64,000 bases of DNA from NCBI RefSeq assembly GCF_053078305.1, contig NZ_CP166879.1. One strand, 5' to 3'. The position numbers and the translations under genes are program-made. Below are positions 58,251 to 59,360 of the stretch, one piece after another (the first letter of the stretch is position 1; every line of letters starts with the position of its first letter). Below the pieces are notes generated by a model, which was not told the DNA's origin, searched no databases, and saw only the letters and a program-made list of their open reading frames with translations.

Positions 58251-59360
58251 TTGTTCAGTATTCAGACACCTAAAAAGAAATTTAATGCCAATAAATTAAC
58301 ATTTAATGGCAACTATCCTTATGTTGCCAGAGGAAGTAACAATAACGGCATAAAAGGATATATAGATGAAGATGAATTATATCTCAACCCGGGGAATACA
58401 ATTAGCTTTGGTCAGGATACTGCGACTATGTTCTATCAGGAAAACGCATATTTCACAGGTGATAAAATAAAGATTTTTTCTCTCAGGCATGGAGAGTTAA
58501 ATTCGCGAATTGCTTTTTTTCTTATATCAGCAATGAAAAAATCTTTTTCAACGTTTAGTTGGGGGAGTAGCTCTTTTAATGAGAATGTTCTCAATAAGGT
58601 AAAGATAAATATACCTACGTTTAATAATGTTCCTGCATATAATTATATGGTAAAGTATATAGAAGAGCTGGAAGCGGCCCATATAGAAGAGCTGGAAGCG
58701 GCCCATATAGAAGAGCTGGAAGCATACCTGATAGCTGCTGGGCTGAGTGATTACCAACTAACGGAAAAAGATTATCTTATCCTGGAACATTTTAAAAATA
58801 TTGAATTTTCAGGCTTTCCTGTTACTGAGTTATTCTCAGTGTGCAATACAGGAAACATATTGTCTAGAGACATCATAGAAAATAGTGGGGATGTTCCTTA
58901 TCTTTGTGCTAGCCGTGAGAATAACTCTGTTAGTTCTTATATCGCCTATGATAACTCACTCTTGGAAAAAGGGAACTGTATTTTTATTGGTGGTAAGACA
59001 TTCGTTGTAACTTATCAGGAGCGAGACTTTTTTTCAAACGACAGTCATAATTTGCGACTCTATGTTAACAATGAGGATGGAAGGACAAAGTTTGCTTATT
59101 TGGGCATTATTTCATGTATTTATAGATCTATTTCACATAAATATTCATGGGGGGATAGTGTTAGTAATAGAAAAATTAAGAACGATGTTGTTTGGTTGCC
59201 AGTAAAAAATAAGTCACCTGACTTTTGTTATATAAATGACCTTATTTCAGTTGTTCATAAGCTTGTCATTAAAGATGTTGTCCAGTACGCAGAACGCAAA
59301 ATGAACGCATACAGGCAAGCTATAACAAGTCGCGGTTATGATGATTCTGGTGTCAGTTAA
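58251..59360 (+). CDS. restriction-modification specificity subunit (HsdS/BcgI-B-like, two target-recognition domains)
   Basis: Two TRD-like halves separated by a coiled-coil spacer with tandem IEELEAAH repeats. ORF-track start is TTG 58251, but the frame is open upstream to 58155 and encodes HsdS-like N-terminal residues (KSGGKWEEYTIERLF) with no canonical start. Confidence 0.7.
   Translation: MFSIQTPKKKFNANKLTFNGNYPYVARGSNNNGIKGYIDEDELYLNPGNTISFGQDTATMFYQENAYFTGDKIKIFSLRHGELNSRIAFFLISAMKKSFSTFSWGSSSFNENVLNKVKINIPTFNNVPAYNYMVKYIEELEAAHIEELEAAHIEELEAYLIAAGLSDYQLTEKDYLILEHFKNIEFSGFPVTELFSVCNTGNILSRDIIENSGDVPYLCASRENNSVSSYIAYDNSLLEKGNCIFIGGKTFVVTYQERDFFSNDSHNLRLYVNNEDGRTKFAYLGIISCIYRSISHKYSWGDSVSNRKIKNDVVWLPVKNKSPDFCYINDLISVVHKLVIKDVVQYAERKMNAYRQAITSRGYDDSGVS
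58659..58724 (+). repeat. 2.75 copies of a 24-bp tandem repeat (ATAGAAGAGCTGGAAGCGGCCCAT) in the S-subunit central spacer
   Basis: Read directly; encodes IEELEAAH IEELEAAH IEELEA. Confidence 0.9.

Follow-up and report, generated by a model that had tools for sequence, protein, structure and literature searches.

Here, we describe a 24-bp tandem repeat that changes in number, by whole units, between otherwise near-identical alleles of a prophage-borne restriction-modification system, and that probably alters the spacing of the DNA site recognized by the enzyme. The window, i.e., the whole stretch of DNA analyzed, comprises 64,000 nucleotides of contig NZ_CP166879.1 (RefSeq assembly GCF_053078305.1). 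It carries a gene for a fused nuclease-methylase (hereafter RM, for restriction-modification) and, immediately downstream, a gene for a specificity subunit (S). The repeat lies in S, in the helix (CR1) that links the two target recognition domains (TRDs), and encodes a unit of 8 residues. The features of the locus are listed in Table 1 and the alleles compared in Table 2.

The repeat and the specificity subunit that carries it

Tandem Repeats Finder reports the tract as a period-24 array with 100% matches and a score of 134, and when the tract is compared with itself at a lag of 24 nt all 43 positions are identical. By chance, about 10^-18 such runs would be expected over the whole 64 kb when all lags up to 500 are allowed. 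The unit, ATAGAAGAGCTGGAAGCGGCCCAT, begins at 58659, in register with the codons of S, and encodes IEELEAAH. Throughout this work, the repeat number of an allele is its count of IEELEA cores. An earlier note on this DNA had placed the repeat at 58659-58724. The unit, its start and its frame were right; the end was one base too far, since 58724 is an A where the unit has a G, and the periodic tract also takes in the AT at 58657-58658. The note was also correct that the gain or loss of units stays in frame, 24 nt being eight codons. This property rules out that the 24-bp repeat works as an on/off switch.

The tract sits between two Methylase_S domains, which bears out its earlier placement between two TRD-like halves. 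We found in S the layout of an HsdS-type subunit: tandem Methylase_S domains, two long helices, and a fold like that of solved S subunits. The fold was modeled with AlphaFold2 from an 84-sequence alignment, with a mean predicted local distance difference test score (pLDDT) of 89.1, slightly lower (81 to 88) within the repeat, and a predicted template modeling score (pTM) of 0.61. The nearest solved folds found by Foldseek are the HsdS subunits 1YDX, 1YF2, EcoKI, and EcoR124I and the S chain of the Type IIB enzyme BsaXI; the probability is 1.0 to 1YDX, 1YF2, 2Y7C, 7BST, and 8W0P_C, with low TM-scores (0.3 to 0.37). The repeat lies within a continuous helix joining both recognition domains, and hence the analogy with EcoR124I/II drawn in the earlier note is structurally apt. 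The S frame is already open from 58155, and 25 conserved residues precede the TTG at 58251. The model folds these residues as a helix, and a short N-terminal helix is predicted at residues 2-13 of the translation from 58176. Searches of the RM and S protein sequences against Protein Data Bank chains gave no match at E <= 1. Among NCBIfam families none matches S, and RM has only sub-threshold matches to HsdM and MAD2.

The earlier note had assigned S to a Type I system. This part of its interpretation did not hold, in contrast with the polymorphism and the position in the central helix, which did: the RM-S pair is a BcgI-like Type IIB system. RM is a single polypeptide with an N-terminal PD-(D/E)XK nuclease motif followed by an N6-adenine methylase, in which motif I precedes NPPY, and the S gene comes immediately after it. 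The conserved RM protein has about 680 residues, starting near 56140, and both RPD...EYK and NPPY are invariant across 16 RM homologs. The PADLOC model REase_MTase_IIG matches full-length RM (E 6e-234), and its "Type II specificity subunit" model matches S (E 4.8e-19, profile positions 7-329 of 341). Public records name relatives "BcgI alpha chain-like" and "BgcI subunit beta." No HsdR gene lies beside the RM-S pair, which is found in the late region of a lambdoid prophage, 3' of the Q antiterminator gene and hok/sok and 5' of genes for a nanS-type esterase, a holin, and a lysozyme.

Table 1. Features of the RM-S locus (coordinates of the window; nt, nucleotides)
Feature	Position	Strand	Remarks
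RM gene, fused nuclease-methylase, BcgI-A-like	55276..58176	+	ATG 55276, read through the 7-nt array
(ACCAGCG)x120 array inside RM coding sequence	55286..56125	+	directly after codon 3; encodes (DQRPATS)n
N-terminal PD-(D/E)XK-type nuclease motif region (RPD...IEYK)	56215..56388	+	weak Pfam VRR_NUC match, E 0.0015
N6-adenine methyltransferase domain (FATGSAG ... NPPY)	57199..57951	+	Pfam N6_Mtase
Slippery heptamer A_AAA_AAG in RM frame (candidate)	58164..58170	+	one codon before RM stop TAA 58174-58176; S frame -1
Stem-loop directly after the heptamer	58172..58211	+	-20.3 kcal/mol, z -5.1; homologous helix with covariation in relatives
S subunit open reading frame, 369 aa	58251..59360	+	first canonical start TTG 58251
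Methylase_S domain 1 (first TRD and start of CR1)	58272..58697	+	Pfam PF01420, residues 8-149, E 8.7e-20
Central helix CR1 (predicted, continuous), holds the repeat	58638..58736	+	residues 155-187 of the 394-aa translation from 58176, AlphaFold2
24-bp tandem repeat	58657..58723	+	2.8 perfect copies; IEELEAAH-IEELEAAH-IEELEA, scored as 3 cores
Methylase_S domain 2 (second TRD)	58815..59204	+	Pfam PF01420, residues 189-318, E 1.8e-7
C-terminal helix CR2 (predicted, 36 residues, 350-385)	59223..59330	+	AlphaFold2; expected antiparallel partner of the central helix
Intrinsic-terminator-like hairpin and T-run	59426..59455	+	66 nt beyond the S stop
(GCGGACTC)n octanucleotide array in S			TRD2-C alleles, directly 3' of the 24-bp repeat: L003, L006, L007, L008, L016, L023, L025, L040

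Unit number among alleles and what it may do

Comparing copy number across related prophages and homologs, as the earlier note had proposed, shows that it is not invariant: near-identical genes carry one, two, three or four units (Table 2). Among the enterobacterial DNA loci compared, two units are found in 24, three in 8, and four in 2. The window and locus L017 differ by a single nucleotide polymorphism (SNP) in 3.15 kb and one 24-bp indel, and the same is true of L002 and L009. Such one-unit differences on a background of 1 SNP per 3.15 kb imply that unit number changes fast relative to point mutation. In two further pairs (L011 and L012, L029 and L030) the RM protein is the same and S differs by one extra unit; in one such pair, of metagenome loci, the S subunits have 374 and 382 residues. 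Natural alleles with identical recognition domains and different repeat numbers are thus found in this system, as they are among the EcoR124I/II and NgoAV variants. In one of the loci compared, that of Escherichia coli 2015C-3121 (L008), S carries an IS1 insertion close to its 5' end.

Table 2. Repeat number on each combination of recognition domains
Allele	1 unit	2 units	3 units	4 units
TRD1-A/TRD2-A (window type)	P0001 (cluster of 84 sequences)	L017	window, L001, L015	none seen
TRD1-B/TRD2-A	none seen	L002, L010, G1/2, G6/7, G8, three O111:H8 strains, two UCPROB strains	L004, L009, P0015-21	P0012, P0013
TRD1-A/TRD2-C	none seen	L008	L003, L006	L007, L016
Salmonella allele	none seen	P0036	P0026	P0029

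The same steps recur at the scale of the family. We took the 120 best S homologs, clustered at 90% identity and drawn from several phyla, and measured the linker between the conserved motifs that flank it. Linkers of 6, 14, 22, and 30 residues are found in 2, 73, 30, and 7 of the 120 proteins, respectively; a single protein is off-step (18 residues), and 7 were not scorable. The ground state of the linker consists of two diverged units, F-IAELEAER-IAELEAYL. Three-unit linkers arose separately, by duplication of each lineage's own unit, e.g., IADLEAER in Microcystis (P0028 vs. P0030) and LQELQAER in Haemophilus-type proteins (P0057 vs. P0097). Further units that were duplicated in their own lineages are IAELEAER, LSQLEAFR, IRELEEAR, ISELEAER, VAELEAER, and ITELEAER.

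What could these changes do? We propose that the repeat acts as a length module of CR1, in frame and hypermutable, in the S subunit of a Type IIB enzyme that is itself a prophage moron. Slipped-strand mispairing or unequal crossing-over would add or remove whole IEELEAAH units. A longer or shorter CR1 would then alter the spacing and the relative rotation of the two recognition domains, and with them how many unspecified bases separate the half-sites methylated by the (RM)2S enzyme, which also cuts around them. Alleles with one, two, three, and four units on the same recognition domains would have four different specificities. Type I enzymes provide the precedents. In EcoR124I/II, the gap is set by a 12-bp (TAEL) repeat located in the first helix between the domains, two copies giving N6 and three giving N7, and the extra four residues have been described as shifting the domains by 0.34 nm and 36 degrees (PMC3874165). 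In NgoAV, SMRT sequencing assigned GAC-N6-TGC to the form with one LEAT and GAC-N7-TGC to the form with two (PMC6789123). If the scale of Type IC enzymes, where four residues correspond to 1 bp, can be extrapolated, each unit would change the gap by about 2 bp, because 8 residues amount to twice that step, with the helix turned by about 80 degrees. Given that two units are the family norm and that characterized Type IIB gaps span 5 to 7 bp (PMC11997821), the three-unit allele of the window would recognize an unusually long gap. By analogy with EcoR124I/II and NgoAV, from which both the effect and its size are inferred, we put the probability that unit number changes the recognized gap at roughly 0.6.

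Several observations weigh against this interpretation. Only CR1 changes: CR2 keeps a constant length among close alleles while the repeat number varies. How a one-sided change in the length of CR1 is accommodated has been stated as an open problem for EcoR124 itself (PMC3874165). The domain geometry cannot be read from our model of S, because of its pTM and of the low TM-scores to solved structures. The mutational mechanism would by itself suffice to account for the 8-residue quantization of the linker. In the majority of sequenced lysogens RM is not in frame (see below), and S may therefore often drift without selection. Finally, the literature searched, on BcgI-like systems of E. coli and Salmonella, on methylomes of Shiga toxin-producing E. 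coli (STEC), and on the repeat sequences, holds no methylome, cleavage or binding data for the RM-S system. A methylome paper on O111 STEC concerns other enzymes.

Some of these points also speak for a different explanation, namely that the length polymorphism is silent or inactivating. The extra turns could bulge out or extend past the coiled coil, so that the spacing of the TRDs is kept, or non-standard unit numbers could kill the activity. The invariance of CR2, the weak selection that may act on S, and the slight dip of pLDDT within the repeat would all fit, as would the fact that two units are the clear mode of the family. The hinge that BsaXI has halfway along its CR1 (PMC11997821) points the same way. 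However, forms with three or four units make up 37 of the 120 clusters, have independent origins in many lineages, and keep their open reading frames intact. Moreover, one-sided repeat changes in CR1 altered the gap in both Type I systems where this was tested, EcoR124 and NgoAV. We thus regard a silent or inactivating polymorphism as unlikely, if still a serious contender.

The repeat could also be chiefly a recombination site for swapping TRD halves, with changes in copy number as a by-product of unequal crossing-over that has no selected role. The repeat is indeed where the resemblance of one S allele to another breaks off: when positions 58177-59400 of the window were compared by BLAST with 29 E. 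coli genomes, matches covered either 505-1224 or 1 to about 550 of the query. At least three types of TRD1 are combined with at least two types of TRD2 around the same IEELEA core. This modularity, as read from the alignments, indicates that recognition domains are shuffled through recombination in the conserved linker. Yet copy number also differs between loci whose flanks are identical on both sides, save for 1 SNP in 3 kb; no domain was exchanged in these pairs, and hence slippage within one allele does occur. Recombination as the main role of the repeat is accordingly an improbable explanation of its variation. It is compatible with a change of the gap, and the conserved repeat probably doubles as a crossover point that shuffles S halves between alleles.

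An assembly or sequencing artifact is hardly credible: some records do show clear misassembly of neighboring short-unit arrays, with a poly-C run in L008 and 7-nt arrays that have collapsed in the short-read contigs of IMG/VR, but the 67-bp tract is far shorter than a read, and alleles with two, three, and four units are found again in many sources independent of one another (complete genomes, phage records, and metagenomes).

The family also offers material for a more general problem. Its natural series, in which one to four units are combined with the same recognition domains, belongs to a small (RM)2S enzyme of a class with a recent cryo-electron microscopy structure (BsaXI), and is well suited to the question of how a helix lengthened on one side affects the geometry of the subunit.

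Other variable elements and genomic setting

The locus has a second tandem array, of 7 nt, within the coding sequence of RM. The ATG at 55276 has a Shine-Dalgarno sequence (AAGGA) upstream. The RM of relatives without the expansion begins with MLPDQRPATNKSRK.VKSVEP, and that of more distant ones with MAK..SIEPNIADL. The beginning shared with unexpanded relatives identifies this ATG as the true start of RM, and because it lies upstream of the array, the number of units n modulo 3 sets the frame of RM. The array is in frame (ON) in the window. Across the complete genomes (window, L001-L010, L055-L062), n ranges from 22 to 120 (22 to 98 outside the window), and it differs between otherwise identical loci: about 91 in G1/2, about 82 in G6/7, and about 98 in G8; 55, 82, and 57 in three O111:H8 strains; and 75 and 82 in two UCPROB strains. 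RM is in frame at 3 of the 18 scorable loci, namely the window, JNEC-KY173 (L004, three 24-bp units), and G8 (L057, two 24-bp units), the last two sharing their recognition domains; these calls come from complete genomes, in which long-read errors could shift some of them. The short-read IMG/VR contigs were left out of the frame calls, as their arrays have evidently collapsed, and L008 was left unscored, as its poly-C run interrupts the array and is probably an assembly error. RM thus has the sequence features of a putative contingency locus: a non-triplet tract near the start, a strain-variable number of units, and both frame states in natural isolates.

A third array is found in TRD2-C alleles, where an octanucleotide, GCGGACTC, is repeated directly 3' of the 24-bp repeat. 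With n = 6, 9 or 18, S is full length and gains (GLADSRTR)n. With n = 7, 16, 26 or 28, i.e., with any n that is not a multiple of 3, S stops just after CR1 and a half-subunit is left. The S allele of the window does not have this array.

The junction between RM and S raises an additional question: how is S translated? In the window, RM ends with GAA AAA AAG CAG TAA, where a heptamer of the slippery type lies in register with the RM frame. We compared 21 distinct RM/S junctions, with RM identities from 100% down to 28% (including L002, L005, L011-L014, L023-L035, L042, and L047). At all 21, G_GGA_AAR, A_AAA_AAG or A_AAA_AAA is found in the RM frame 0 or 1 codon before the stop, and the frame of S is -1. 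A hairpin (-15 to -24 kcal/mol) starts 1 to 6 nt 3' of the heptamer, with the exception of L025, for which RNAfold favors another structure. Most junctions have no canonical start before the conserved VEWGEF motif; the Neisseria locus L013 has an in-frame TTG and ATG there. The 12-bp helix of the hairpin is 91.6% paired over 16 aligned junctions, a level that none of 500 shuffles reached, vs. 34 to 53% when the 3' partner is slid; compensatory changes are found at three pairs, and RNAalifold recovers the same helix. The signal of heptamer and hairpin is kept across E. coli prophages, Neisseria, Providencia, and Firmicutes-type loci.

These data suggest, at the level of sequence, programmed -1 frameshifting at the RM/S junction that makes an RM-S fusion. 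The predicted trans-frame peptide would read ...ASEKK-AVNSRLAELEREF... in loci of the window type and ...FAGK-VNSPLSDK... in those of the L002 type. Natural in-frame fusions of RM with S or with half of S exist in the family (P0242, 983 aa; P0263, 1098 aa; P0302; P0379), and some of them run ...WEVAQILKKDSPKQSLISERIANLEREFKASGGKF..., including a homolog of the RLAELEREFIKSGGKW of the window. An engineered fusion of M and S of EcoKI is active if free M is also present (PMC3510504), and BcgI is an A2B enzyme, with two RM for one S (PMC3592470). Hence, partial -1 frameshifting would supply free RM and RM-S together. Constraint on the protein alone is an unlikely cause of the heptamer, given that at G_GGA_AAR junctions the Gly codon is invariably GGA and the preceding codon invariably ends in G. 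Six more remote loci also argue in this direction. They have neither heptamer nor hairpin; five have an ordinary ATG overlapping the stop or just before it, and L044 has a separate downstream S frame. An intrinsic terminator was considered for the hairpin and ruled out, since the T-run that follows it is not conserved in L005 or in L002-type junctions. A search of Rfam over 54700-59600 returned sok only, and thus no known element at the RM/S junction, and we found no report of a programmed RM-S frameshift in our literature search.

The odd features of the RM-S locus are the cause of recurrent annotation artifacts (L001-L009, L014, L055-L062). S is made to start at ATT or ATA, or after its conserved N terminus, or is split into a "partial" pseudogene and a second coding sequence in spite of its open frame. 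The N-terminal nuclease region of RM is cut off, and spurious "YXWGXW repeat-containing" or hypothetical proteins are called on the reverse strand across the 7-nt array.

The late-region position of the pair is the moron position that stx occupies in Stx phages. Immediately 3' of the Q gene is a site resembling a late promoter (TTGAAA-16-TAGAAT), which is followed by hok/sok (54742-55130 of the window), with the Rfam match to sok at 54776-54947 (97.6 bits). The RM-S pair, coming after these, is therefore expected to lie inside the Q-dependent late transcript, and the hairpin with a T-run downstream of S likely ends the unit. Of 5,426 complete E. coli genomes, 29 carry the system, which is also present in a single deposited phage, PhiR12_3. 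Four of the 29 genomes (NZ_AP045167.1, NZ_AP042554.1, NZ_AP042574.1, and NZ_AP042687.1) have two copies, in different prophages, which would permit recombination between S alleles from copy to copy. RM homologs with 72 to 74% identity (P0145-P0240) are found across E. coli prophages, Neisseria, Providencia, Methylophilaceae, and Lachnospiraceae-type contigs. The mean column identity of RM is 83% (16 sequences), and the recognition domains of S are highly diverse. This pattern suggests that a conserved catalytic subunit with exchangeable specificity may recently have spread widely by horizontal transfer.

Taken together, the family in prophages could form a contingency system of four layers in E. 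coli: a 7-nt switch of RM, 8-residue steps of the gap (at least four values), an 8-nt array whose halving of S leads to a palindromic site, and a -1 frameshift giving free RM and RM-S in a ratio of 2 RM to 1 S. We advance this combination tentatively and regard it as somewhat doubtful in its full extent. To our knowledge, E. coli is not known for contingency loci made of simple sequence repeats (SSRs). If the proposal is true, lambdoid and Stx-type prophages carry a restriction system that can change its specificity and expression faster than point mutation allows, with consequences for superinfection exclusion, for gene flow, and for strain typing based on methylomes.

Comparison with known systems

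We know of repeat-number control of the recognition gap as demonstrated only in Type IC enzymes, with units of 4 residues. The kind of mechanism proposed here is already known. An 8-residue unit in a Type IIB S subunit, quantized across the family and carried on a prophage, appears undescribed in the literature searched.

Among enzymes of the same type, BcgI is the one that the system resembles by architecture, record names, and PADLOC matches, in that its RM joins a PD-(D/E)XK nuclease, at the N terminus, to an N6A methylase of the gamma class, and its S is separate and has two domains. BcgI cleaves on either side of its bipartite site (PMC3592470). The BcgI literature examined describes neither repeat polymorphism, nor a 5' heptanucleotide array, nor a frameshift-type junction like those of the prophage system. 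BsaXI, whose structure was solved by cryo-electron microscopy (8W0P), is also an (RM)2S enzyme, with an S of the form TRD1-CR1-TRD2-CR2 (PMC11997821), and is the third-best structural match of our S model. It is nevertheless distant in sequence (no phmmer match, 13% identity in the structural alignment), and its RM carries knob and paddle inserts.

The other elements of the locus have their own counterparts. The 7-nt array recalls the SSRs of phase-variable RM genes (Type III mod, Type I hsdM and hsdS) in Haemophilus and Neisseria, which also consist of a non-triplet array just after the start of the gene that varies between strains. The prophage arrays differ in being far longer (22 to 120 units, up to 840 bp), in their E. 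coli host, and in being part of a prophage moron. The RM/S junction is like the -1 frameshift site of dnaX, with an identical A_AAA_AAG heptamer in register, a strong hairpin 1 to 6 nt downstream, and a -1 frame that lacks a canonical start of its own. The shift in dnaX truncates one protein, whereas the candidate shift at the junction would bypass a stop and fuse two subunits.

The closest parallels to the repeat itself come from Type I systems. The hsdS gene of NgoAV, a Type IC system of Neisseria gonorrhoeae, has a poly-G tract downstream of LEAT, through which S is cut short to a half-subunit whose specificity is new and palindromic (PMC6789123). This is the layout of the TRD2-C alleles, an in-frame repeat and then a frameshifting tract that truncates S, and the half-subunit so left resembles the truncated HsdS of NgoAV or EcoDXXI; the systems differ in RM type, in repeat units, and in host. 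In EcoR124I/II as in the prophage S, the first helix between the domains carries a short tandem repeat that keeps the frame, and the copy number of this repeat differs between otherwise identical alleles. The unit of EcoR124 is 12 bp (4 aa) in two or three copies, vs. 24 bp (8 aa) in one to four copies here. As a Type I enzyme, EcoR124 has its motor in a separate subunit, HsdR; the prophage S serves a fused nuclease-methylase without HsdR. Hence, the prophage S resembles the Type IC repeat variants in mechanism and not in family, being an 8-residue module of a Type IIB enzyme.

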